From positions 1-62,768 of the forward strand of contig JBAZJR010000006.1 in the NCBI GenBank assembly GCA_041651195.1: a stretch of 62,768 nt of DNA, given 5' to 3'. This DNA comes from Patescibacteria group bacterium. GTDB lineage: Bacteria > Patescibacteriota > Patescibacteriia > Patescibacteriales > UBA12465. A program made the translations under genes and the position numbers. Below are positions 14,454-62,504 of this stretch, in pieces; the stretch's first letter is position 1; every line of letters starts with the position of its first letter. The notes under the pieces are model-generated. The model had not been told where the DNA came from. It did no database searches and saw only the letters and a program-made list of their open reading frames with translations.

Positions 14454-15560
14454 TTAATAACTAATTTTTGATTTAATAATGATATTTTCCACTATGCCCA
14501 CCAGGATCAAAAGCGAGACTAGCGAGCTCCCTCCGTAACTGACGAAAGGCAGGGGCAGGCCGACAACCGGCATAATCCCTAAGTTCATACCAATATTAAT
14601 AAACATTTGGATAAAAATCAAGCCTCCGGCGCCTAAGAGGAAATAAATACCGAAATCATTATTGATTTTACTTAAAATTGAGAAACAGCGGAAAAAAAAT
14701 ATAAAATAAAAAGCTAATATCAGCGCAACCCCTAAAAACCCTAGCTCTTCGGCAATAACGGCAAAAATGAAGTCAGTCTGCGCTTCCGGCAAGAACTTCA
14801 GCTGGGATTGCGAGCCAAAACCAACGCCTTTGCCGGTCAGACCGCCGGAGCCGACGGCGATGATTGCCTGCGAGATATTATAACCGGACTCCAAAGCGTT
14901 CTCTCCGGGATTGAAGAAATTAAGGATTCTTTCCTTCTGGTAATCTTTAAACAGGAAAAACCAAGAAACAGCCAGGATCAGGATCGCGGCCAAGCCGACG
15001 ACTAAGAAATATTTTTTAGGGAAACCGGCGGCTAGGATCATAACCAGCCAGATGGCGCCAAGGATCATCGTAGAGCCGAAATCCGGCTGCATAATTACTA
15101 AGAAGACTAGAAAAGCCGCGCTGGCGGCGGAAATTAAAAAATGGCGGGCCGTCTTAACCCGGGTCGCCAAATTAGAAAAATATTTCGCTAAAAATAAGAT
15201 CAGGACGATCTTGACGAATTCTACCGGCTGCAGGCCAAGGCCGAAAAGCGAAAACCAGCCTTTCGTGCCGCGAATAGTCTGACCGAAGACCAGGACGGCT
15301 ACTAAAATAATGGCCGCTAAGACATAAAAATAACGGCTCAGACTCCGCAAGAAACGGTAATCGATAAAAGCAAAGGCAAATAACAGAAAGAATCCGGTGC
15401 CGGCGAAGACCAATTGTTTCTTAAAATTGAGGAGATTGCCGCTGCCCTGCCCTAGAGCTACGCTATAAATCTCTACCAGCCCGAAAGTTACCAGCAGGAA
15501 GACGGAAGCGAAAATAATCCAATCGAAATTCTTAAGATAGAGCTTGAAACGGCTAAGCAT
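14454..15560 (-). CDS. FtsW/RodA/SpoVE (SEDS) family peptidoglycan polymerase
   Basis: 368 aa, polytopic. PDFGSTMIL and GKGVGFGSQSQLKFLPEAQTDFIFAVIAEELGFLG motifs. Confidence 0.85.
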   Translation of the reverse strand: MLSRFKLYLKNFDWIIFASVFLLVTFGLVEIYSVALGQGSGNLLNFKKQLVFAGTGFFLLFAFAFIDYRFLRSLSRYFYVLAAIILVAVLVFGQTIRGTKGWFSLFGLGLQPVEFVKIVLILFLAKYFSNLATRVKTARHFLISAASAAFLVFLVIMQPDFGSTMILGAIWLVMILAAGFPKKYFLVVGLAAILILAVSWFFLFKDYQKERILNFFNPGENALESGYNISQAIIAVGSGGLTGKGVGFGSQSQLKFLPEAQTDFIFAVIAEELGFLGVALILAFYFIFFFRCFSILSKINNDFGIYFLLGAGGLIFIQMFINIGMNLGIMPVVGLPLPFVSYGGSSLVSLLILVGIVENIIIKSKISY

Positions 15561-47689: not shown

Positions 47690-48532
47690 TTATTTGATTA
47701 TTTCATCGACTTCCTTTAGCTTATCGGCGGCTTTCGTATAATCTTTCTGATCAAAAAGTTTCGTCGCTTCTTCTAAGACCTTATCCGCCTCGGAGGATCC
47801 GGTTTCCGTCTCGGCCGTCGCCGCGGCACCCGTCTCGATTCCGGCGGTCGAACTCGCTTCCGGAGTCGTACTAGCCGCGACCGTGCCCGTGCCCGGTTCT
47901 GCTGGCGTCACAGCCGTCTCTGTTTTTTCAAAAAGCTCGATTCCCTGCCCGTCTTTAGAATTTTCCGCGATGACCACGTCATCAAGAGCAGCCGGAACCG
48001 GAACCGGCGCTTTCTTAACGGTAGACGGCAGGCGGCTGATCCGATCCTTAGCCATGTTCACTTCCGCCTTAAAGCTATCATTTAATTTCGCCACCTGTTC
48101 TCTATTCGCTTCGGTATTGAATTCCGGATCAGCTAAGACGGCGCTGATATCCTGGGCATGGCTGGTCGCGAACTGCACCGCCAGCTTATCGCGCGTTTCT
48201 GTATTGAAAGTCGTATTCAGTTTTACTTGTTCAGAGATTATCCGGGCGATATAAAGAGAATCGTTCGGCTTCGCGCCAGCCAGGAGCTGCTGGCTGAACA
48301 TCGCGCCGGAAAGCAACATCAACACGAAAGCGCCCAAAGCATAAGCTGGCCGGGAAATTGCTTTCATAGCGCTCGTAAAATCAATCAAGACGATTTTCCA
48401 AACCGCTAATTTTTCCGCGCCGGAATTAGAAACCTGGGATAATAAAAGCTCCCGATTGCTCTTCAGCCAATTTTGATCGGGGCTAATGTTTTTCAGGCTA
48501 TTTAATCTAGCGATCAGTTCTTTATCAGTCAT
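47690..48532 (-). CDS. single-pass membrane protein encoded after the sigma factor (possible anti-sigma-like partner)
   Basis: The ATG at 48532 (MTDKELIARLNSLKNISPDQNWLKSNRELLLSQ) is preferred over the TTG at 48559. One TM helix (AYALGAFVLMLLSGAMF), then a helical, acidic, Thr-rich outer part. The functional call is by position only. Confidence 0.45.
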   Translation of the reverse strand: MTDKELIARLNSLKNISPDQNWLKSNRELLLSQVSNSGAEKLAVWKIVLIDFTSAMKAISRPAYALGAFVLMLLSGAMFSQQLLAGAKPNDSLYIARIISEQVKLNTTFNTETRDKLAVQFATSHAQDISAVLADPEFNTEANREQVAKLNDSFKAEVNMAKDRISRLPSTVKKAPVPVPAALDDVVIAENSKDGQGIELFEKTETAVTPAEPGTGTVAASTTPEASSTAGIETGAAATAETETGSSEADKVLEEATKLFDQKDYTKAADKLKEVDEIIK

Positions 48533-48564
48533 ACACCATAGTATACGTAAAACTCGCAAAAACG

Positions 48565-49146
48565 TTACAGATTACTCTCTTTTTCAACTAACTCTCTTAA
48601 GGCATTTAAAGCCCGATGCAGGAGAACGCGGACATTACCCTTAGTTTTTCCGCTAATATCAGATATTTCTTCTAAAGAAAGGTCATTGATAAACTTCATG
48701 ATGATCACTTCCCGATATTCTTCTTTGAGAAGCGGGAGTAAGCGTCTTATCAAGGCTAAATTCGCTTCTTGGTCCAAGCGTTCTGGCGTATCTATGCTAT
48801 CATCAGCCACATCTATCGGCCGGTTTTCATCATCCAAAGAGACGCTCACCTTATTACCGGTTTCCCGATAATAATCTACGATCGAAGTGCGGGCGATTTT
48901 ATATAATAGAGCTCTTAAGGTCTTGGCGTCTTCGAGAGTCTTGTTCTGGATATAGTTCCAAGTCTTCAGGAATATCATCGAAGTCAAGTCATTAGCCTCC
49001 TCGGAGTTGCCAATCTTAAAATAGACGAAACGATGGATTTCCGCCACATTTTGATCATAAATCTCGATAAAAGCCTCTTTATCGCGATTTTTAAGGCGAC
49101 TCATGATCTGCTTATCCTTAAATTTTTCTAACGGATTCAGGGCCAT
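48565..49146 (-). CDS. RNA polymerase sigma factor, sigma-70 family, ECF-like (regions 2 and 4 only)
   Basis: 193 aa. Region 2 (FIEIYDQNVAEIHRFVYFKI..EANDLTSMIFLKTW) and region 4 HTH (LSLEEISDISGKTKGNVRVLLHRAL). Confidence 0.8.
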   Translation of the reverse strand: MALNPLEKFKDKQIMSRLKNRDKEAFIEIYDQNVAEIHRFVYFKIGNSEEANDLTSMIFLKTWNYIQNKTLEDAKTLRALLYKIARTSIVDYYRETGNKVSVSLDDENRPIDVADDSIDTPERLDQEANLALIRRLLPLLKEEYREVIIMKFINDLSLEEISDISGKTKGNVRVLLHRALNALRELVEKESNL

Positions 49147-49384
49147 TTTTTTAACAAAAAATAACGGGGATGTTCAACCCGCCGTGCGCGATGCCTATTA
49201 TTTATACCTTTTCATCCTATCACAAGAAGGACGGAAAGGCAAGAAAAAATACGGCTTATTTTACACTATAAAATGTATATATGTATATACGCTCAAAGGA
49301 TTTTTTTAATCATTCTTCTATATTATTTTAAGTTATCGATCTTCTCTTGACTTTTTAAGAGTAAAAGGACTAATATAATATAAC

Positions 49385-49410
49385 TTAAGTCTAAACATAT
49401 ATGGACTTAA
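49385..49410. promoter_or_regulatory. operator-like palindrome copy 1 (TTAAGTC-N12-GACTTAA)
   Basis: Read directly from the sequence. Related to copies 2 and 3. Confidence 0.5.
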
Positions 49411-49474
49411 AGCTTATTATCAATCATTTTTAGATCCTTAAATCAAGCTTGACTGATTTCCAAATTTTATAAAA

Positions 49475-49503
49475 TTGACATTATTATGCACAATAAGCAT
49501 ATT
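49475..49503 (+). promoter_or_regulatory. candidate promoter TTGACA-17-CATATT for the HTH gene
   Basis: ttgacattattatgcacaataagcatatt. The -10 overlaps palindrome copy 2. Confidence 0.45.
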
Positions 49504-49529
49504 TAAGTCTAATATAATATAGACTTAAA
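49502..49529. promoter_or_regulatory. operator-like palindrome copy 2 (TTTAAGTCTA-N8-TAGACTTAAA)
   Basis: Perfect 10-bp arms. Confidence 0.55.
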
Positions 49530-49560
49530 ATATTTTTTAATTTTTTATTAGCCTATTTCT

Positions 49561-49594
49561 ATATTTAAGTCTAAGCTATATTAGACTTAAATAT
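49561..49594. promoter_or_regulatory. operator-like palindrome copy 3 (ATATTTAAGTCTAA-N6-TTAGACTTAAATAT)
   Basis: Perfect 14-bp arms. Ends 15 nt before the ATG at 49610. Confidence 0.55.
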
Positions 49595-49609
49595 ATAAAA
49601 ATTATAAAA

Positions 49610-49876
49610 ATGGCGGACAAAATAAAGCTCCCAATTAAAGATGTCGGCTATCCTATCTGGGTATCTGTTTCCGAGGCAGCTGATCTCGGCGGCGTCCAAG
49701 GGAAAACTATCCGACGAGCGATCAAAAGCGACCCTAATTTACGCTATAAAATCGTCAAAAACCGCTACCATATAGAATTCGGATCGTTGCTCGCCTTCCT
49801 CCATAAGAACACCAAGTTGAGAAACAAACTTAATGACCTAGGCTTGGGCCAGTATGTCAGCGCCTGGAAAGAATAA
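49610..49876 (+). CDS. small helix-turn-helix DNA-binding protein (excisionase/MerR-like HTH)
   Basis: 88 aa. WVSVSEAADLGGVQGKTIRRAIKS reads as an HTH. AT-rich surroundings. Confidence 0.5.
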   Translation: MADKIKLPIKDVGYPIWVSVSEAADLGGVQGKTIRRAIKSDPNLRYKIVKNRYHIEFGSLLAFLHKNTKLRNKLNDLGLGQYVSAWKE

Positions 49877-49896
49877 AAAGGATAAACGATAAAATA

Positions 49897-49933
49897 AAAA
49901 AACCACTCCGGATTCCGTCGGAGTGATTTTTTA
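49897..49933. terminator. bidirectional terminator between the HTH gene and hup
   Basis: A-run, stem CACTCCG / CGGAGTG (about 49904-49926), then TTTTTT. Confidence 0.7.
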
Positions 49934-49993
49934 TAGGAAAACTAAATTTTCTTTCTCAACCTTGCTTTCTTTCGAGAATCTAAACTTAGGAAA

Positions 49994-50275
49994 CTAGAGG
50001 ACCGCGTCCTTGACTGCCTTGGCTAAGCGGAATTTAACTACGGTTTTCGCCGGGATCTTGATGGTTTCGCCGGTCGCTGGATTGCGGCCTTCTCTAGCCT
50101 TGCGATGAGCTTTAACTAATTTGCCGAAACCTGGGACAACGCATTCGCCGCTTTTCTTCGCTTCTTTGTAGACGAAAGCCGCTAAATTATCCATAAAACT
50201 GGCGGTTTCCTTCTTGCTTAAACCGGTCGCTTCCGCTAAAGAGGCGATCATCTGTGACTTTGTCATTTTTGACAT
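49994..50275 (-). CDS. hup: DNA-binding protein HU
   Basis: MTKSQMIASLAEATGLSKKE..GFGKLVKAHRKAREGRNPATGETIKIPAKTVVKFRLAKAVKDAV. The track start at 50311 is TTG. An ATG at 50275 or 50266 is preferred. Confidence 0.9.
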   Translation of the reverse strand: MSKMTKSQMIASLAEATGLSKKETASFMDNLAAFVYKEAKKSGECVVPGFGKLVKAHRKAREGRNPATGETIKIPAKTVVKFRLAKAVKDAVL

Positions 50276-50411
50276 AATTTTATTATGGGATCTTAGAAAT
50301 AAATAGCTCAAAGCTATTTAATAGGAAGATCCGTTTAAATAATTACTAACCTTTAAATATAGACTGATTCATTTTTAAATAACAAACAAGAAACTCAATG
50401 TCTATGGGGAT

Positions 50412-50440
50412 ATTATAGCATACCTAATAAAATATGCCAA
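50412..50440 (-). promoter_or_regulatory. TTGGCA-17-TATAAT promoter with TGn extension (TGCTATAAT)
   Basis: Minus strand reads TTGGCAtattttattaggtaTGCTATAAT, just after the SET gene stop. A second candidate (TTGAGC-18-CATAAT) sits 6 nt before the ATG at 50275. Confidence 0.45.
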
Positions 50441-50452
50441 TAAATAAAGGGC

Positions 50453-51211
50453 TTATTTGAATCCAAGGAGCTCGCGGCCGCTAAGGCCCCAGATAACCAG
50501 ACCTAAACGTCGGAAACGGATAGGCCTGCCTGCCTCGCGCAGCGTCCGGCGCAAAACCGCTAAGGTCGGCAAAGTTTCTGCCTCGGATAGCAAAGGTTTA
50601 GCTGATAAATTAGCGAATAAATCATAAGCCGCGTCATCCTTGATCCGCCTCGGATAAGTGCCTAAAGCGGTCAAGACCGCGCCAGGCTTAAGCAATTTAA
50701 AGGCCGCTTGCCGCCGCGCTTCTCGGCGACATAAGCGGCCATAGCGTTTAAGCTTGGCGACACTTACATACATCGTGCCGCGGCAAACCGGGCTGCCGCA
50801 GGAGCATTGGTGCAAAAAATCTTTCTGCTTACGAGCCTCGGCTTGATCGGCATCAAAGCTATAATCGATCGTCAATTCTTCGCCCGGGAAAATATGCCGC
50901 AAGGCGAAATAAAGAGTATGGCCGAGATAATAGTAGCTATCGCAATTCGGCGAACAAGAGTGATTGATCAGGTGCACGCCCGGCGCCTTGATATCCAGTG
51001 GGAAAATCGATAAGCCGTTATCAGCATAATCCATCGCATAGCAAGCATGTCCGTACTTATTCTCTAGCCGGACCGCGGCTTTATCAGGGACTAAGCGGCC
51101 CAAGTAATCGCCGATGACCGTGCCGGCCGCTATGCCGCGCCGCGCGAAAACGCCGCGCCCTTTCCGGCCCGCAGATTTGATCTGATAAAAATCGGGAGTC
51201 AATAGGAACAT
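50453..51211 (-). CDS. SET-domain protein (putative protein-lysine methyltransferase) with a ~100-aa basic C-terminal extension
   Basis: 252 aa. GRGVFARRGIAAGTVIGDYLG, HLINHSCSPNC, GEELTIDYSF, post-SET CSCGSPVCRG. Confidence 0.8.
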   Translation of the reverse strand: MFLLTPDFYQIKSAGRKGRGVFARRGIAAGTVIGDYLGRLVPDKAAVRLENKYGHACYAMDYADNGLSIFPLDIKAPGVHLINHSCSPNCDSYYYLGHTLYFALRHIFPGEELTIDYSFDADQAEARKQKDFLHQCSCGSPVCRGTMYVSVAKLKRYGRLCRREARRQAAFKLLKPGAVLTALGTYPRRIKDDAAYDLFANLSAKPLLSEAETLPTLAVLRRTLREAGRPIRFRRLGLVIWGLSGRELLGFK

Positions 51212-51215
51212 AACT

Positions 51216-51764
51216 TTAATCTTTTAATTTCTGGCTACCCCTTTTCCCCCGCCTCATCTCAGGCCACAGCCTACCCCGATTGCGCCGCCGAAATTCCGGA
51301 TCAAGCCAATCCCGTCCGGTCACCACCCCGCGGCAATCCACCGCGCCGCAGGCGCATTTCATCTTGAACTCGGCATCCGTGAACATGAAGCCGTAATCGA
51401 TGAAGAGCTCTTCCCCTTTCTTGATCGCCCGCGCCGCCACGAAATTGCCTTGCTGGTCGTAAGCGATATTAGGCGCGCAGCTATGATTAAAATACCAGGA
51501 AATACCCATATTATTCAGGTCGGCCGGCACGATATACTCGTCGTCTTCCAAGACGCAGAAATGTTTTATCTTTTCGCGCGTCGTCTTGTCCAGCTTCCGG
51601 AAATCCCGCCGGCCCAAGATAACGACTTCCTCCGGCGCGTCAACATCAGCGACAACTTCTCCGCGCCTGATATTCCGGACGGCGAAAGTCGCGACCTCGC
51701 CAGGTAAAGCCCGGGAGGGACGGAGTTCGAACATCAGCCGCGGAATCTTTTTGACTTTCTTCAT
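51216..51764 (-). CDS. SET-domain protein (putative protein-lysine methyltransferase)
   Basis: 182 aa. YFNHSCAPNIAY, GEELFIDYGF, post-SET CACGAVDCRG. ATGA overlap with the upstream GNAT gene and a 4-nt gap to the next SET gene. Confidence 0.8.
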   Translation of the reverse strand: MKKVKKIPRLMFELRPSRALPGEVATFAVRNIRRGEVVADVDAPEEVVILGRRDFRKLDKTTREKIKHFCVLEDDEYIVPADLNNMGISWYFNHSCAPNIAYDQQGNFVAARAIKKGEELFIDYGFMFTDAEFKMKCACGAVDCRGVVTGRDWLDPEFRRRNRGRLWPEMRRGKRGSQKLKD

Positions 51765-52654
51765 AATTTAATAAATTTATATTGCGGTTCCTTGTCCAGA
51801 TGCCAGGCCTCCTTCCAATTACAACCACCTAAAGAAAAATTAAAGGTCTTCAGTCCCAGGCTGATCGCCAGTTCCAGATTAGCTTTAGTCAAATATTTAA
51901 AAGCATCGCTCACCCGGCTGATATCCGAGCCGACAATCAAGTAATAGTAGATATTATTATAAACGATCGATAAAGAAGCGGCCAGCTTTTCGCCGTCTAT
52001 TTCGACTGTAATGAGGTGCCAAGCCAAGGATAATCTGACCAGGTCACGGAAAGGCTGGCGCTCCGCTTCCGTCCGCAGATAAGATTCCGCGCCGAAGCGC
52101 CGGACGTTGAGATCCATCAATAATTCCAGGTCCTTAAAATCATTATGGATGACCTTGACCGCGTGCTCGCGTTCCAAGACCGTAAAGATCCGCTTGAAAT
52201 TAGAACGCTTGTGGGCGCTGGGGAAAGCCACGGTCAGATAGTCGCCGAAACTATGAAAACGGCTGATATCTAAAAAATAAATATAGTCTTCCAAGGGCAA
52301 GGAACGAGTAAAATCATCCTGGCCGGAGATATCGAAGATCTTAGTGACGGCTGGCGCCAAACGGAAGAGCTCAGGCACCAGATGCTCATAGCCAGCTTTG
52401 ACGAAAGGCCGGTTCTCTTCCATAAAGTTCTCCGCAAAAAATTCATAGGCGGCGAGAAGCTCGTTATATTGCAGAGGTAATAACCCGACTGCCTGGCCAT
52501 CCTCATAGATGGCATAAAAATGGAGCGGCTGGACGTCATGGCAATAAAAACAATAACGAAAATCCCAGAGATCGTAGAGCGACCGCTGGGGCGACAATTT
52601 ATTCCATAGGCGTTTGGCCTCCGCCAAATCGTGAAAAATCTTGATTTCGGTCAT
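51761..52654 (-). CDS. GNAT-fold acyl/peptidyl-transferase, CelD/BcsL or FemAB-like
   Basis: 297 aa. The overall pattern (LWNKL..SLYDLWDFRYCFY ... LITVEIDGEKLAASLSIVYNNIYYYLIVGSD ... FNFSLGG) resembles two-lobed Acetyltransf_6-type proteins. Called from memory of the family. Confidence 0.55.
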   Translation of the reverse strand: MTEIKIFHDLAEAKRLWNKLSPQRSLYDLWDFRYCFYCHDVQPLHFYAIYEDGQAVGLLPLQYNELLAAYEFFAENFMEENRPFVKAGYEHLVPELFRLAPAVTKIFDISGQDDFTRSLPLEDYIYFLDISRFHSFGDYLTVAFPSAHKRSNFKRIFTVLEREHAVKVIHNDFKDLELLMDLNVRRFGAESYLRTEAERQPFRDLVRLSLAWHLITVEIDGEKLAASLSIVYNNIYYYLIVGSDISRVSDAFKYLTKANLELAISLGLKTFNFSLGGCNWKEAWHLDKEPQYKFIKL

Positions 52655-52685
52655 AATTTACCGCCAGATCATGTATATCACGGAA

Positions 52686-55154
52686 TCACATGATATTCGG
52701 CTGGAGATGATAATAGGGCGGATTATCCTTATAGCGTTTGATCGCCAGACGGATGATCTCCTCCAGAAAATCGCCATAATCCAGGCCGATAACTTCCGCC
52801 GAAGCGGAAAATGTCCCCTCGGCGTCCAGCGACGGATTAGGATTGAGCTCCAGGACGTAAGGGTTATTATTCTTGTCCACCCGGATCTCGATCCGGCCGT
52901 AATCATGGCAATCCAGGATATTATAAGTATCTAGAGCGATCTCGCCCAGGAGAGCTTCTAATTTCTTATTGATATTCTTTGGCGGACGCTGGACGATGAT
53001 CTTCTTATATTCCCCGCCATCCGTGTATTTTGATTCGAAAGGATAAATATGCCAGAGATTCGGCGGCAGCTCGTCGAAGATGGAACGCGCGAGCGGCAAT
53101 ATCCGGAGATCATCCTCCTCGCTCCCGATGATCGGCACATCGTATTCGTCGCCGTCGATATACTCTTCGATCAGGGCCGGCCGGCCGATTTCTTTCAAGA
53201 CCTTCTCTAATTGCCGATAGAGCTCCGCCTTATTCCGGACGACCGAATCGTTGGTGATGCCGATTGAATTGTCGGTATTGGCCGGTTTGACGATAAGCGG
53301 ATATTTCAAATCGTCGCGGATATCATCATCCAGAGAATAGACGTAGTCCCATTCCGGCGTCGGGATCTTATGATAGCTCAAGAGCTTCTTGACGCGGATC
53401 TTGTCGATGCACAAGCCGAGAGTAAAGGGGTTGGAGCCGGTATAAGGGATCTGCAAGGTATCGAGGATGGAAGCCACGTGCGGCTCCAAGAGGCTGGAAT
53501 TATTGATCCGTTCGCAGACATTGAAGACAAGATCCACGTCGCTATTCTTCAGGTCATTGAAAGCCTGCGGCAGGTCGTTGAAATCGAAAAAGCTGATCTT
53601 ATAGCCCCGTTCCCTAAGATTTTTCTCGATATCCTTGCCGATGACCGTCAGATCATTCTCCACGGCGGTTTCCTGGTCGGCCGCGTTCTCTTCGTAGAGA
53701 TTGCAGGCGATGCCGATATGCAGATTGCGCTGATTAGAGATGGCCATGCGCCTGATCTTCTCGATCTTAGAGCGACGCTTCAAGATGTCGACATTGATGG
53801 CGGAAACGGAAAATGGCGAACGGCGCGTCGTCTTGCCGAGAGAAGAAGCGGGATGGAACCGCGCTACGTCATAGCTGATATATTTTTTGGCTTCGTGGAG
53901 ATTATCTTGCGCGTCCAGGGGATTAGAGCCGGAAACCAAGATCCAGCCCAGATATTCATAGCCGTCCGGCGGCAGCAAGACCGAATCGCCGATCCTCTTC
54001 TCGAACTGGAATTCCTTGACGAAAGGCCGGCGCTTCAGATCGTCGCCGATCTCCAAGTTGACGATGATCCCGGAATGATCGGAAGAAAAAGTATCGGCGA
54101 TCAGATATTCATAGGGGCCAGTCGGAAATTCGAATTTCGGGATATAGACGCCGAGCGCGATCTTCAGGAGGTTCTCGATCAGGTCGATATGCCAAGCCGC
54201 CTTGACGCTCGGATAGACCTCATCGCCGCCGAGGCGTAGATTTATTTCCAAGGGGACAGGGCCGCGCGGCGTGGATTTCGCTTCAAAATGGATGCAGCCG
54301 TTCAGGATCCCTAATTTTTCCAAAGTCTCGTCGGCCATCGCCAAAAGCTCGGTTTGATTCTTAGCGGGCAGGCTAGAGGGAGTCATGCGCGTCGTCTCGA
54401 TAAAAAACGGCTCCTTAGTCTTACCATTATCGGAAATGCCGCAAAACTTGATCTTCCCGTTCTGGATCAGGATGTCCATATCGACTTCATCACCATCGAT
54501 ATATTCCTCGACAAAGACTTCGAGGCCGTCATTCAGGGCAGACTCGATCTTCGGAGAGATGTCTTTCTTGATGTAATTATAGCTCTCGCGCAACTCTTCT
54601 TCGTTGTCGACCTTGACGACGAAAGCGCTAGCCGCGCCATAGGCGGGCTTGACGACCAAGGGAAAATTGAAAGATTTAACGGTCTCATCCAGATCCCTGG
54701 CGCTTTTCAACTCCCTGAATTTAACGGCCGGCAAATTATTGGCCGCGCAAAATTCCCGCAAAGCGTATTTATTGCGGACACGATTAGCTACTTTATAAGA
54801 CGTGCTGATCAATCGATATTTATCGGCGATCTTCGCGGTCAAGAGGACGTCGTCTTCCAAGAAAGTAATGACGCCGTCCAGCTTGACGGCCGGATTGAGC
54901 TTGAAAAATTCATCTAAGGCGGCTAAGGCGGCCGGAAAATTCAGGGTATCAGCCGTCACGCAATGATCGACATAGGGCTGGAAACTATTAGCTTCTTTGC
55001 TTAAGATGACAATCTTTAACCCCAGATTCTTGACTTTCCGGATAAAGGCTTTTTTCGAATGGAGCGGATCATTTGCTCCCGCCGTATTGACGATCAGGAT
55101 TGTCTTGTTAGCGAGCGGGCTACGGTGCGAGTCTGCATGGCCATTGCCGTTCAT
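52686..55154 (-). CDS. fusion of two ATP-grasp ligase modules (L-amino-acid-ligase-like N-half, D-Ala-D-Ala-ligase-like C-half)
   Basis: 822 aa. N-half: FPLVVKPAYGAASAFVVKV, FVEEYIDGDEVDMDIL, LEINLRLGGD. C-half: LHIGIACNLYEE, PYTGSNPFTLGLCIDKIRVKKLL, YPLIVKPANTDNSIGI, IEEYIDGDEYDVPIIG, VLELNPNPSL. Confidence 0.7.
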   Translation of the reverse strand: MNGNGHADSHRSPLANKTILIVNTAGANDPLHSKKAFIRKVKNLGLKIVILSKEANSFQPYVDHCVTADTLNFPAALAALDEFFKLNPAVKLDGVITFLEDDVLLTAKIADKYRLISTSYKVANRVRNKYALREFCAANNLPAVKFRELKSARDLDETVKSFNFPLVVKPAYGAASAFVVKVDNEEELRESYNYIKKDISPKIESALNDGLEVFVEEYIDGDEVDMDILIQNGKIKFCGISDNGKTKEPFFIETTRMTPSSLPAKNQTELLAMADETLEKLGILNGCIHFEAKSTPRGPVPLEINLRLGGDEVYPSVKAAWHIDLIENLLKIALGVYIPKFEFPTGPYEYLIADTFSSDHSGIIVNLEIGDDLKRRPFVKEFQFEKRIGDSVLLPPDGYEYLGWILVSGSNPLDAQDNLHEAKKYISYDVARFHPASSLGKTTRRSPFSVSAINVDILKRRSKIEKIRRMAISNQRNLHIGIACNLYEENAADQETAVENDLTVIGKDIEKNLRERGYKISFFDFNDLPQAFNDLKNSDVDLVFNVCERINNSSLLEPHVASILDTLQIPYTGSNPFTLGLCIDKIRVKKLLSYHKIPTPEWDYVYSLDDDIRDDLKYPLIVKPANTDNSIGITNDSVVRNKAELYRQLEKVLKEIGRPALIEEYIDGDEYDVPIIGSEEDDLRILPLARSIFDELPPNLWHIYPFESKYTDGGEYKKIIVQRPPKNINKKLEALLGEIALDTYNILDCHDYGRIEIRVDKNNNPYVLELNPNPSLDAEGTFSASAEVIGLDYGDFLEEIIRLAIKRYKDNPPYYHLQPNIM

Positions 55155-55179
55155 AATTATTTAATGTTATAAGTCGCGA

Positions 55180-55977
55180 TTATTTGATATTATAAGTCAC
55201 GCCGATTTCAATAACTACTTCCCGATCGCCGGACGGCGTGCTCGGCGAGACCGCGGCCGCGGCGCCGAGTCCTCCCTTGCCATAATCCGCGGCGCCGTAG
55301 ACCGGTAGCGGCGAAACCAAATTTTCATACCAACCGGTGATCTCCTTGAGCTCGACGCCGGCAGTATCTGCTAAAGCGACGCTCTTCCATTTAGCGTCTT
55401 CGATCGCCCGGATGCGCGCCTGCTGCTTCAAGTCGTTCATATTAGCGGCGTCGAAACTCAGATTATTGATCTGATTGGCGCCGGCCCGAGAGGCGGCAGC
55501 GATCACTTTGCTTAATTGGTCCGGCGCCTGATCATAGCCCGTTACTTTAATTACGAGCTGCTGATTGGCGTTATAGCCGGAAACCGTAGAAATATTATCT
55601 TTGTAATCGTACTGCGGATACAATGAATAATTCTGAGTCTGGATATTTTCCGGAGCGATGCCGGCGGCCTTAACCTCTTTGATGATACTAGCGACCTTGG
55701 CGTTCAACTGGTCCAAAGCTTCTTCCGGCTTAGCGACCTTGTCGATCTGGACGCCGAGAGTGACGATCGCGATATCCGGCGCGTAAACGATCCGGCCCTG
55801 GCCGGTCACTGTCACCATCCTCATCTGCGGATTGACGATCCGGTCGCGCAAGATAGCGACCGTGATGATGCCAGCCAAAAGGATCAAACCGACGATGATG
55901 ATCGCGGTCCGACCATGGCCTTTACCGCAACAAGATTTCAGCTCGTCGCAGCAATTATTCTTTTTTTCTTCTGACAT
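55180..55977 (-). CDS. SIMPL (DUF541) domain protein with N-terminal membrane anchor
   Basis: 265 aa. Cys-rich cytoplasmic tip (NNCCDELKSCCGKGHG), one TM helix, then the SIMPL core (VTVTGQGRIVYAPDIAIVTLGVQ ... REVVIEIGVTYNIK). 25-nt gap to the ATP-grasp gene. Confidence 0.75.
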   Translation of the reverse strand: MSEEKKNNCCDELKSCCGKGHGRTAIIIVGLILLAGIITVAILRDRIVNPQMRMVTVTGQGRIVYAPDIAIVTLGVQIDKVAKPEEALDQLNAKVASIIKEVKAAGIAPENIQTQNYSLYPQYDYKDNISTVSGYNANQQLVIKVTGYDQAPDQLSKVIAAASRAGANQINNLSFDAANMNDLKQQARIRAIEDAKWKSVALADTAGVELKEITGWYENLVSPLPVYGAADYGKGGLGAAAAVSPSTPSGDREVVIEIGVTYNIK

Positions 55978-56006: not shown

Positions 56007-56015
56007 ATTATAGCA
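56007..56015 (-). promoter_or_regulatory. extended -10 element TGCTATAAT
   Basis: Plus strand reads attatagca. 29 nt upstream of the SIMPL ATG. It is the only promoter-like element seen for the 55977->50453 gene string. Confidence 0.5.
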
Positions 56016-56059
56016 CCTTATTAAAAAACTACAATAAAATCCACTGAAAAACGCCTAGA

Positions 56060-60719: not shown

Positions 60720-62504
60720 CTAACGTTTGGCGCGGACGCGCTCGTTTTCCGTCAGATACTGCTTGCGCAAACGGATGCTCTGCGGCGTGATTTCTAGATA
60801 CTCGTCGTCATTCATGATGCTCAAGGCCGTCTCTAAGCTTAATTCTAAGGGCGGCGTCAGGATGATCGCCTCATCCGTGCCGGAAGCGCGGACATTGGTA
60901 AGTTGCTTCCCTTTGATCGGATTGACCGTCATATCGCTCCCCTTGGCGACGTTGCCGATAACCATGCCCTCATAAACTTCGACATTGGGCTTGATATACA
61001 AGACGCCGCGATCCTGGAGATTCCATAATGAAAAAGCTAAGGCTTTGCCCGTGATCATAGAAACCATCGAGCCTAATTTATTCCGTTCGATCTCTCCGGC
61101 GAAGGGCTTGAAGCCGGCGAAATGCGTACAGAGTATCCCTTCGCCGCGCGTATCCACGACGAATTCATTGCGATAGCCTAAGAGACCGCGCGTCGGAATC
61201 TCGAAGATCAGGCGCGACTGTCCGTTATGCGTCCGCAGATCTTGCAAGAGACCGCGCCGCTTGGAAATCTTTTCCATCACAACGCCAGTCATCGCTTCCG
61301 GGATATCTATGGTCACTTCTTCAAAAGGTTCTAATTTCTGGCCGTTTTCTTCCTTGATGATCACCTGCGGCTGAGAGACCTGGAGCTCATAGCCTTCCCG
61401 GCGCAAATTTTCCAATAAGATGGCGATATGCAGCTCACCGCGGCCAAAAACCTTATAGGAAGCGGCGTCGGAAAAATCGATCTTCAGGCCGACATTGACT
61501 TCCAGCTCTTTCTGCAAGCGCTCGCCGATCTGCCGGTTCGTCACGAACTTTCCTTCCCGGCCCGCAAAGGGCGAATTATTAACCAGGAAATTCAAAGAGA
61601 TCGTCGGCTCATCGATCTTGATCGCCGGCAGCGGCGCCTGTTCCGGCGCTTCCGCGATAGTCTCGCCGATATAGATATCCGCCAAGCCCGCGACCATTAC
61701 GATATCGCCGGCCGCGGCCTCCGCGATCTCTTCCCGCTTCACGCCTTTAAAAGTAAAGAGCTTAGTCGTCTTCCGTTGCCGCGTTTCGCCGTCCAGATTT
61801 TCGATATAAACGGTGCTGGAGGCTTTGATCTTCCCTTCGTAGACACGGCAGATCGCCAAGCGTCCTAAAAAATTATCGTAAGCGAGATTAAAGGGTTGGG
61901 CTGATAGCTGCTTACTTTCAGCCTCCGGGCTGGAGGCGGCCGGCACGTGTTCTAAGATCAGGTCTAAGAGCGGATCCAGATTAACCGACTCATCGGTTAA
62001 ATTTTTCTTAGCGATGCCCTGTTTAGAAGCGGCGTAGATCACGGGGAAATCAAGCTGTTCGTCGTTCGCGCCCAGGTCCAAAAATAATTCATAGACCATC
62101 TCGCTTACCGCTTCCGGCCGCGCGGCCGGCTTATCGATCTTATTGATCACGACGATCGGCTTCAGTCCGAGCTCCAAAGATTTCTTAAGCACGAACTTGG
62201 TCTGTGGCATGGGTCCCTCCTGCGCATCGACGAGCAATAAGACGCAATCGATCGAACGCAGAATCCGTTCCACTTCGGAACTGAAGTCGGCGTGGCCGGG
62301 CGTGTCCACGATATTGATCTTAGTATCGCGATAAAAGACCGAAGTATTCTTGGAATAGATCGTGATCCCCCGCTCTTTTTCCAGGTCGTTGGAGTCCATG
62401 CTCACCGTCTCATCGGTCATGCCGGTCTGGCGCATCAAGGCGTCGGTCAGAGTCGTTTTGCCGTGATCGACATGGGCGATAATAGCGATATTCCTGATTT
62501 CCAT
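60720..62504 (-). CDS. typA: translational GTPase TypA/BipA
   Basis: 594 aa. IRNIAIIAHVDHGKTTL, DTPGHADF, NKID. EF-G-like domains without domain IV. Confidence 0.9.
   Translation of the reverse strand: MEIRNIAIIAHVDHGKTTLTDALMRQTGMTDETVSMDSNDLEKERGITIYSKNTSVFYRDTKINIVDTPGHADFSSEVERILRSIDCVLLLVDAQEGPMPQTKFVLKKSLELGLKPIVVINKIDKPAARPEAVSEMVYELFLDLGANDEQLDFPVIYAASKQGIAKKNLTDESVNLDPLLDLILEHVPAASSPEAESKQLSAQPFNLAYDNFLGRLAICRVYEGKIKASSTVYIENLDGETRQRKTTKLFTFKGVKREEIAEAAAGDIVMVAGLADIYIGETIAEAPEQAPLPAIKIDEPTISLNFLVNNSPFAGREGKFVTNRQIGERLQKELEVNVGLKIDFSDAASYKVFGRGELHIAILLENLRREGYELQVSQPQVIIKEENGQKLEPFEEVTIDIPEAMTGVVMEKISKRRGLLQDLRTHNGQSRLIFEIPTRGLLGYRNEFVVDTRGEGILCTHFAGFKPFAGEIERNKLGSMVSMITGKALAFSLWNLQDRGVLYIKPNVEVYEGMVIGNVAKGSDMTVNPIKGKQLTNVRASGTDEAIILTPPLELSLETALSIMNDDEYLEITPQSIRLRKQYLTENERVRAKR

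Follow-up and report, generated by a model that had tools for sequence, protein, structure and literature searches.

Serial action of ATP-grasp ligases in peptide assembly has been described for the fuscazine pathway, in which two such enzymes, FuzC and FuzH, build a tripeptide (PMC13149037). MurL is an ATP-dependent epimerase that acts on the C-terminal residue of a peptide (PMC5808125), and among prokaryotic SET-domain enzymes cpnSET methylates Hc1 and Go1-SET methylates MC1-alpha, both of which are small basic DNA-binding proteins (PMC3980110). Here, a locus that brings ATP-grasp and SET domains together was analyzed in a 62,768-nucleotide stretch of a Patescibacteria group bacterium (contig JBAZJR010000006.1, positions 1 to 62,768; this whole stretch is referred to as the window). 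Five consecutive minus-strand genes at 50453-55977 encode SIMPL (SIMPL/DUF541, 265 aa; 55180..55977), a protein of two fused ATP-grasp modules (ATPG, 822 aa; 52686..55154), a Fem-type tandem-GNAT protein (GNAT, 297 aa; 51761..52654), a SET protein with a post-SET Cys cluster (SET1, 182 aa; 51216..51764) and an MLL-like SET protein with a post-SET cluster and a C-terminal extension (SET2, 252 aa; 50453..51211). The genomes of Patescibacteria are tiny and encode very few biosynthetic enzymes. SET-domain methyltransferases are hallmark enzymes of eukaryotic chromatin; in bacteria few of them have been studied, and these are for the most part effectors aimed at the host or enzymes with nucleoid proteins as substrates.

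The component superfamilies are already known, as are ligation systems that pair ATP-grasp enzymes with Fem-type transferases. What is new is a phylum-wide and highly conserved fusion of an L-amino-acid ligase (LAL) with a Ddl-like ligase, the modular tailoring cassette that stands behind it, and the recurrent recruitment of SET proteins into this cassette. A first-pass annotation of this DNA, made from the sequence alone, had named no described system of this composition, and none was found in the searchable literature; the amidoligase-neighborhood survey of Iyer et al. (2009) could mention a related one. Literature searches returned no paper joining "Patescibacteria" and "SET domain", and nothing relevant for "Candidate Phyla Radiation" together with "ATP-grasp".

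ATPG was characterized by profile and structure-database searches. Its N-terminal module (residues ~40-430) matched ATP-grasp_4 (103 bits, cut-off 27) and LAL_C2 (41.8 bits, cut-off 29.4) in Pfam, which is the L-amino-acid-ligase type, and its C-terminal module (residues ~500-810) is Ddl-like, with Dala_Dala_lig_C at ~506-805 (125 bits, cut-off 24); ATP-grasp_4 and Dala_Dala_lig_C each matched two stretches of the protein. The RimK profile reached 29 bits, with no single stretch passing. The best PDB sequence match of the N-terminal module was the BL00235 L-amino acid ligase (3vot, E 9e-29), with BacD and 4wd3 matching too, and that of the C-terminal module was Bacillus anthracis Ddl (3r23, E 1.4e-25). 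In an alignment of 80 species, catalytic residues were kept in both the N-terminal (K169, E216/E217 and E303-N305-R307) and the C-terminal module (K623, E663/E664, R754 and E769-N771), and the ATP-binding lysine, the EE..G.E hinge and the E-x-N Mg-binding residues of both were at least 97% conserved, the C-terminal module being the more conserved overall. With both modules also above the curated Pfam cut-offs, the earlier description of two complete ATP-grasp modules is borne out.

The Ddl-like module is always fused to the L-amino-acid-ligase module and departs from Ddl at the substrate sites. Its best named match in NCBIfam was PRK01372 (E 9e-57), at a score under the curated Ddl cut-off (192 vs 243 bits), as was that for TIGR01205 (156 vs 246 bits). 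The equivalent of Ddl E15 is kept, and K709-Y710 are the counterparts of K215/Y216. For the Ddl substrate-site motifs we take those of E. coli DdlB: HG..GEDG is missing from the C-terminal module of ATPG, where an invariant FNVCERINNSSLLEPH is found instead, and E.N..PGMT..S (with S281/L282) is missing as well, with an invariant ELNPNPSLD in its place. The invariant replacements for HG..GEDG and PGMT..S are CERINNSSLLEPH and PNPSLD.

ATPG (net charge -25) matched 724 protein clusters at E <= 1e-10, and every source name given was a member of the Patescibacteria. The best 120 of these 724 were all 805-836 aa long, apart from two fragments truncated by contig ends. The gene is present in at least 505 GTDB species genomes, and identity between class-level lineages (Gracilibacteria, Peregrinibacteria, Paceibacterota, Roizmanbacteria, Jacksonbacteria and Komeilibacteria) is star-like at 58-67% (~60%). 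The double ligase is thus well supported as the conserved core of the system, and because so many species keep it at this identity despite their tiny genomes, its product or target likely matters to these episymbionts. An origin from mobile elements was considered and rejected, as matches to ATPG in a phage collection were just ordinary Ddl genes (20-29% identity) and matches to SET2 were absent from it.

GNAT belongs to Acetyltransf_6 (PF13480, E 5.3e-11), and some of its relatives match PF04339 as well; no match to Pfam FemAB (PF02388) was obtained. A sequence search of the PDB returned zero matches, and only the fold search was informative. The AlphaFold 2 (AF2) model (pLDDT 95.9) has a tandem-GNAT fold, for which the top Foldseek matches were the aminoacyl-tRNA-dependent peptide synthases Sba18/Sbb17 (E 1.5e-10, TM 0.67), followed by FemX and then the aminoacyl-phosphatidylglycerol synthase domain of MprF (E to 1e-7; TM 0.57-0.69). 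Sequence identity to these Fem-type folds is 10-14%, and protein N-terminal aminoacyl transferases were not among the top 50 Foldseek matches. From its modeled fold, GNAT is predicted to be an aminoacyl-tRNA-dependent aminoacyl transferase. The family comprises 100 clusters, all of ~300 aa and nearly all with Patescibacteria names (one is Saccharimonadales and one just "bacterium").

Distant GNAT relatives (35-38% identity) adjoin LAL-like and RimK-like ATP-grasp genes in three loci (L090, L171 and L172), so that two unrelated architectures join the GNAT family to LAL-type ATP-grasp ligases. These regions (L090:7119-16981, L171:3509-9695 and L172:4365-11660) hold one to three GNAT-family paralogs each, accompanied by 7TM_transglut, ATPgrasp_ST/RimK with a RimB-like gene, an LAL-like ATP-grasp gene, one to three MATCAP-type carboxypeptidases and a nearby MFS transporter. 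This gene set is a second conserved ligase/peptidase system of Patescibacteria.

Both SET proteins matched the Pfam SET profile (cut-off 22.4 bits), SET1 with E 1.4e-12 (48.4 bits) and SET2 with E 5.4e-18 (65.8 bits). The NHSC(S/A)PN, EL.IDY and post-SET C.CG...CRG motifs noted earlier were all read in the translations, as NHSCAPN, ELFIDY and CACGAVDCRG in SET1, which has a basic C-terminal tail and a net charge of +9, and as NHSCSPN, ELTIDY and CSCGSPVCRG in SET2 (net charge +16). The best PDB sequence match of SET2 was the MLL1 SET domain (E 1.1e-14, 29% identity), and Foldseek matched its AF2 model (pLDDT 93.6) to MLL1/MLL3 over ~148 columns alone; for the conserved C-terminal extension of ~100 aa, no relatives of known structure were detectable. 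Across 42 SET2 relatives, G18, N83, C86, Y117, C136, C138 and C143 are invariant and motifs in the C-terminal part are conserved. Family members are ~245-255 aa long with the extension included, and their source names are Patescibacteria alone. In both SET1 and SET2 an isoleucine stands two residues before the catalytic tyrosine, a position that we take to correspond to the Phe/Tyr switch of MLL1; this residue suggests that the two enzymes may methylate beyond the mono state.

The neighborhood of the ligase was surveyed in 85 ATPG loci, in which open reading frames (ORFs) were called and searched with the window proteins and all neighbors were clustered. In the clade closest to the window (77-89% identity, Falkowbacteria-like) the order is RlmH-AlkD-(small ORF)-SIMPL-ATPG-[cassette]-HU, and it is the content of the cassette that varies. 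GNAT-A with SET1 and SET2 occurs in five loci besides the window, GNAT-B with SET2 in eight, GNAT-B with GNAT-A in two, and one GNAT alone in about 16; SET1 with SET2, SET1 alone and SET2 alone were each found once. SET genes are thus carried by 16 loci of the close clade, about half of the close relatives, and GNAT lies directly downstream of ATPG in 38 of the 85 loci, with gaps of 2-12 nt. It is well supported that GNAT and the SET genes form an optional, exchangeable tailoring cassette behind the ligase. The first-pass annotation had presented the five genes as one candidate module, but they are not a fixed one: ATPG is constant, GNAT and the SET genes are optional, and SIMPL adjoins the ligase in one clade alone.

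Outside this clade, at 57-65% ATPG identity, GNAT follows the ligase in six loci. Other ATPG operons of these lineages contain a 450-480-aa protein, a third ATP-grasp protein, a pyridoxal-phosphate (PLP) enzyme of the ODC/DapDC fold, an enolase-superfamily protein or HExxH proteins, the last accompanying ATPG in L001, L055 and L122. The 450-480-aa partner is MurL-like, as 9/9 members matched NF041275 (best E 3.6e-8); a PDB profile search with this family gave zero matches, and the MurL link comes from NCBIfam alone. In the same database the PLP partner is lysA-like, resembling diaminopimelate (DAP) decarboxylase (E 1.1e-42), and the enolase-superfamily partner is L-Ala-D/L-Glu-epimerase-like (E 3.7e-49). 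A Komeilibacteria locus (L001) carries ATPG, a MurL-like gene, a SET gene and a DAP-decarboxylase-like (DapDC-like) gene with overlaps of 4 nt and 19 nt. A search of the window for four of these partners (MurL-like, third ATP-grasp, decarboxylase-like and epimerase-like) showed that it has none of them.

The association was then assessed from the SET2 side. In L088 the order is spermidine-synthase-like, ATPG (49% identity), GNAT, MurL-like, SET2. Metagenomes were also scanned, with the distal branch of the SET2 family as the seed, and the 13 full-length SET2 genes that had 5 kb or more of sequence context were scored. An ATP-grasp and/or Fem-like GNAT gene lay within a few genes of SET2 in 9/13 cases, in at least six different arrangements, compared with 0/9 for short SET forms (141-209 aa). 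Among these nine, SET2 is found with a SET1-like gene and GNAT (L114), with a class-I methyltransferase and a GNAT matching Acetyltransf_6 and LPG_synthase_C (L115), or with ATPG and a methyltransferase (L139). In L118 a GARS-like ATP-grasp gene overlaps SET2 with a Fem-like GNAT nearby, in L122 ATPG, SET1-like, MurL-like and epimerase-like genes converge on SET2, and in L125 SET2 and a seryl-tRNA synthetase gene converge on a 342-aa Ddl-like gene. Three further loci (L132, L133 and L136) are of the window's type, and the pairing of a SET1-like gene with SET2 recurs in L087, L109, L114, L122 and L134. The SET association therefore recurs with unrelated gene orders in distant lineages (L001, L088, L114, L115, L118, L122, L125 and L139). 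Because of this recurrence, and of the difference between full-length SET2 and the short forms, a functional association of ATP-grasp ligases, Fem-type GNATs and full-length SET2 (with SET1-like partners) across Patescibacteria appears well supported at the level of gene neighborhoods. The earlier proposal that the genes act together is accordingly supported for ATP-grasp, Fem-type GNAT and SET but not for SIMPL, the link of which is limited to one clade.

Several further features were seen around SET2-family genes. The GARS-like gene of L118 (L118:5533-7953) contains an intein (LAGLIDADG_3, Hint and Intein_splicing) and overlaps the start of SET2 by 16 nt. In L087 and L109, ~470-aa paralogs (462/472 aa; L087:4184-6997 and L109:8808-10232) stand beside SET2 and a SET1-like gene with no double ligase in reach, and they match nothing in Pfam or the PDB and do not resemble ATPG. 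Small RGG/Lys-rich treble-clef zinc-finger proteins (PF23477, zf_Tbcl_2) are encoded no more than ~1.5 kb past the SET2-family gene in six loci (L097:6353-6835, L103:2408-2719, L107:2211-2732, L130:129-926, L135:9742-10263 and L138:1508-1960), and two loci have one at 2-3 kb from the double ligase (L083:7076-7567 and L085:14302-14952); these proteins are candidate protein substrates of the SET enzymes. Polyamine genes flank some ATPG/SET2 loci (L088:642-2126, L088:7868-8284 and L125:6143-6808), being spermidine/spermine-synthase-like and, in L088, an AdoMet decarboxylase, which hints at a diamine or polyamine as one ligase substrate. On a Buchananbacteria contig, a stand-alone SET2 relative with a DUF6076 gene after it has nine T4SS_pilin paralogs in tandem in its vicinity (L086:462-4445).

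Within the window, the five genes have the layout of a single operon. Recomputed ORFs agreed with the coordinates and junctions given earlier, the latter being, in gene order, 25 nt, 31 nt, a 4-nt overlap between the end of GNAT and the start of SET1, and 4 nt, and Pfam matches for every protein confirmed all five domain assignments. A promoter-like element lies upstream (56007..56038, minus strand), with an extended -10 TGCTATAAT read at 56015-56007, where such an element had been proposed, and a conserved TTTTATTGTAGTTTTTT stretch before it. Among relatives, TGNTATAAT with a conserved upstream TTATTGT(A/G)GTTTTT was found 5' of SIMPL in 23/27 and in the SIMPL-ATPG gap in 0/27, and 5' of HU it was present in 18/19. 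A terminator scan detected no minus-strand terminator-like site inside 50453-55977, in agreement with the first-pass annotation; the first one is an intrinsic-terminator-like hairpin past HU (49897..49932, minus strand; a 14-pair stem with 5 G-C pairs, then a T-run), followed by a second at 49851-49834. The best promoter-like site of the region is located between SET2 and HU (50440-50412; TTGGCA-17-TATAAT, 11/12 matches, TG), which fits the earlier statement that the next such element comes after the last gene, and within the block three weaker 9/12 matches were seen, the total count being at chance level (14 vs 9.1 +/- 3.7 expected). With one strand, short junctions, one promoter conserved in relatives and no internal terminator-like site, the single transcription unit proposed earlier is supported. 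As TGNTATAAT precedes SIMPL and HU and never occurs in the SIMPL-ATPG gap, these motifs indicate that SIMPL, ATPG and the cassette are one conserved transcription unit and that HU is under a separate promoter; because no terminator separates SET2 from HU in the window, read-through from SET2 into HU is possible. The order SIMPL-ATPG-GNAT-SET1-SET2-HU is repeated in five other species genomes (L007, L009, L010, L014 and L037) and on one metagenome contig (L133), and parts of it recur in distant Patescibacteria lineages, so that the neighborhood is conserved beyond this genome.

SIMPL matched its profile over the full length (PF04402, positions 1-205 of 205, E 4.6e-39). By hydropathy it is the sole protein of the operon with a transmembrane segment, one N-terminal helix at residues 25-43 (mean Kyte-Doolittle 3.11, 19-residue window), and it has a Cys-rich N-terminal tail; ATPG, GNAT, SET1 and SET2 are soluble. 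SIMPL is membrane-anchored and probably outward-facing. It lies directly 5' of ATPG in 29 loci, all within the 77-89% clade, and elsewhere it was found just in L057, ~3 kb away. Because of this anchoring and of the confinement of its linkage to one clade, SIMPL is treated here as a co-transcribed neighbor with no demonstrable functional role in the chemistry. The HU gene (49994..50440, minus strand; Bac_DNA_binding, E 4.2e-27) has its own extended -10 promoter and a likely start at the ATG at 50275, giving 93 aa. Its adjacency is likewise limited to the 77-89% clade, where it also follows cassettes without SET genes, and in an alignment HU was near-invariant in 16 loci with and 8 without SET genes, a comparison without statistical power.

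The surroundings are those of an ordinary Patescibacteria chromosome, with genes for DnaE, ParAB, RF1/PrmC, FtsW/RodA, BipA, an ECF sigma factor, large surface proteins and glycosyltransferases. A BipA/TypA GTPase gene (window 60720-62504; L001:163-1944) precedes the ligase in the same orientation in 16 loci from the window's clade and the Komeilibacteria, an arrangement that may reflect residual synteny or a ribosomal connection. Just downstream of HU, the opposite strand carries an 88-aa ORF (window 49610-49876, plus strand) that has no Pfam match and whose conservation extends to 23 relatives (cluster c7). An ECF-type sigma factor (193 aa) and a putative anti-sigma factor with DUF5667 (289 aa) are encoded at 47690-49146 (minus strand), and together with a 1157-aa protein they are syntenic downstream of HU in ~20 relatives. 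G+C content is ~0.5 except at 1-2000 (0.33) and 48001-50000 (0.39), the latter stretch spanning the HU gene, the small ORF and the intergenic regions of the sigma factor.

The most economical mechanism that we infer has ATPG, GNAT and the SET proteins acting on one amine- or lysine-bearing substrate. Both ATPG modules would activate a carboxylate as an acyl phosphate and would form two successive amide bonds, yielding a short peptide or a two-residue extension. The Fem-type GNAT would then use aminoacyl-tRNA to attach one more aminoacyl residue at a free amine of the ATPG substrate, and SET1 and SET2 would methylate lysine epsilon-amino groups on the shared substrate, with SIMPL carried on the same transcript outside the demonstrable chemistry. 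We consider it about an even proposition, and the most likely of the substrates weighed here, that this ligation, aminoacylation and methylation act on a short, non-ribosomal, lysine-bearing, peptidoglycan-like peptide or a cell-wall precursor, and not on a protein. This preference follows from the nearest characterized relatives of the ligases, the epimerase and the decarboxylase, which use amino acids, dipeptides and UDP-MurNAc-peptides (free amino acids in the case of BL00235, BacD and Ddl, the relatives of the ligase modules), from the resemblance of one partner to the lysine-forming DAP decarboxylase, and from the MFS transporters that accompany GNAT. Judged by their profile matches, the MurL-like, L-Ala-D/L-Glu-epimerase-like and DAP-decarboxylase-like neighbors hint at small-peptide chemistry of the cell-wall type, and the third ATP-grasp partner fits in with this. 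A more specific form, in which the SET enzymes methylate a lysine of a D-amino-acid-containing, non-ribosomal peptidoglycan-type peptide or cell-wall precursor built by ATPG and extended by the Fem-type transferase, is speculative and on balance doubtful; if true, it would give the first SET domain acting on a non-protein substrate and an ancient, widespread ATP-grasp peptide pathway in the candidate phyla radiation. A reading as a ribosomally synthesized and post-translationally modified peptide (RiPP) system was rejected, because a gene for a precursor peptide would not fit into the junctions and the ligases do not belong to the graspetide type.

A number of observations weigh against a peptide or cell-wall substrate. 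To our knowledge, and going by a review (PMC3980110), no characterized SET-domain enzyme has a non-protein substrate. Neither the window nor the rest of its clade has an epimerase or a decarboxylase partner, no mur/ddl cell-wall genes neighbor the ligase in any of the 85 loci, and about half of the sampled distant-lineage ATPG genes (57-65% identity) are without a conserved same-strand partner. On the SET side, four full-length SET2 genes of the scan (L094, L097, L109 and L127) have neither a ligase nor a Fem-like GNAT nearby, and the same applies to the SET2 relatives of L086, L087 and L089. As the Ddl-like, MurL-like, epimerase-like and lysA-like matches are far under curated cut-offs, partner names are a weak guide to the substrate, and the MATCAP and RimK/RimB-like genes beside distant GNATs fit tagging of protein C-termini equally well.

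The last point leads to the strongest alternative, a system directed at a conserved cellular protein, perhaps a basic one that binds nucleic acids, such as HU, a protein of the ribosome or an RGG/Lys-rich zinc-finger protein. ATPG would add amino acids to its C-terminus or acidic side chains in RimK/TTL-like fashion, GNAT would aminoacylate one of its amines and the SET enzymes would methylate its lysines. We regard this as possible and clearly less probable than the peptide reading. Characterized prokaryotic SET enzymes all methylate proteins, nucleoid proteins included (PMC3980110), and in eukaryotes TTLL12 has a SET-like domain together with a TTL (ATP-grasp) domain (PMC3520985). The strongly basic SET1 and SET2, the ~60% identity of ATPG between class-level lineages, which fits a conserved macromolecular partner, the zf_Tbcl_2 genes of six SET2-family loci, the RimK/ATPgrasp_ST, RimB-like and MATCAP genes beside distant GNATs and the HExxH proteins with ATPG in three loci all point the same way. 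However, the ligase modules are nearest to enzymes of free amino acids and not to RimK/TTL, the closest structural matches of GNAT take small molecules, UDP-MurNAc-peptide or lipid as acceptors, and the dipeptide-epimerase-like and DAP-decarboxylase-like partners are hard to reconcile with a protein substrate. HU in particular lies directly downstream with no terminator between, yet it has its own promoter, follows SET-less cassettes too, is adjacent in one clade and is near-invariant with or without SET genes.

It is improbable, in our assessment, that the SET enzymes work by themselves (e.g., with nucleoid proteins as targets) without chemical coupling to the ligase, their genes simply sitting at a variable hot spot of insertion that separates ligase and HU, and that ligase and GNAT serve another function. 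The cassette is indeed highly mosaic, with GNAT-only, SET-only and GNAT-GNAT versions, SET2 relatives are also found by themselves or among unrelated genes (L086, L089, L094 and L127), and pairs of SET1-like and SET2 genes exist without ATPG in reach (L087, L109 and L134). Chance placement would nevertheless not be expected to produce adjacency in at least six gene orders across lineages with ATPG 49-65% identical, junctions that in some cases overlap and may be translationally coupled, or the split between full-length SET2 and short forms, and chance co-location is unlikely. Very improbable, finally, is an ordinary cell-wall role, with a D-Ala-D-Ala ligase as the C-terminal module, a FemX-type cross-bridge transferase as GNAT and unrelated SET genes: the best named matches are Ddl and FemX and the FtsW/RodA gene (14454-15560) indicates that the organism makes peptidoglycan, but the ligase and GNAT fall under the curated Ddl and FemAB cut-offs, which leaves no known cell-wall pathway to claim them apart from the SET genes, the Ddl motifs are replaced, the Ddl-like module never occurs without its LAL partner, mur genes are not nearby and the recurrent SET linkage is left without explanation.

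Compared with known systems, the SET proteins share the complete SET motifs and the post-SET zinc cluster of prokaryotic SET enzymes and MLL, but they are paired and reside inside an amide-ligase operon, and SET2 has its extra C-terminal domain. Their presence in operons of amide ligases and aminoacyl transferases points either to the use of SET domains on non-protein substrates or to a bacterial protein-modification toolkit, which would combine ligation, aminoacylation and methylation in parallel to the tubulin and histone codes. GNAT has the same tandem-GNAT fold as FemX, Sba18/Sbb17 and MprF, and its paralog number varies between close relatives, as in Fem factors; it differs from them in its low sequence identity, in belonging to Acetyltransf_6 and not FemAB, and in a tRNA dependence that is predicted from the model. 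The RimK/RimB and TTL/TTLL-MATCAP cycles combine an ATP-grasp ligase with a dedicated peptidase, to which the distant GNAT loci are similar, whereas the ligase of the window is of the LAL/Ddl type and its operon is without a peptidase gene. In relation to the MurD2-MurL route, the ligase of distant lineages overlaps or closely adjoins a MurL-like gene, which fits the scheme of ligating an L-residue and epimerizing the C-terminal residue; here, however, the similarity to MurL is remote (the cut-off is 700 bits), the partner is an ATP-grasp and not a Mur ligase, and the window has no MurL-like gene. The C-terminal module of ATPG aligns over the whole Ddl fold and keeps the catalytic residues and the E15, K215 and Y216 equivalents, but the loops at the D-Ala sites are replaced by other invariant motifs and the scores stay below every curated cut-off. 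The N-terminal module has the same ATP-grasp_4 and LAL_C2 architecture as the L-amino acid ligases BL00235 and BacD/YwfE. Unlike these enzymes and FuzC/FuzH, ATPG is restricted to Patescibacteria and highly conserved, which makes it look unlike a sporadic enzyme of secondary metabolism, and in contrast to FuzC and FuzH its two ligases are fused in one 822-aa chain.

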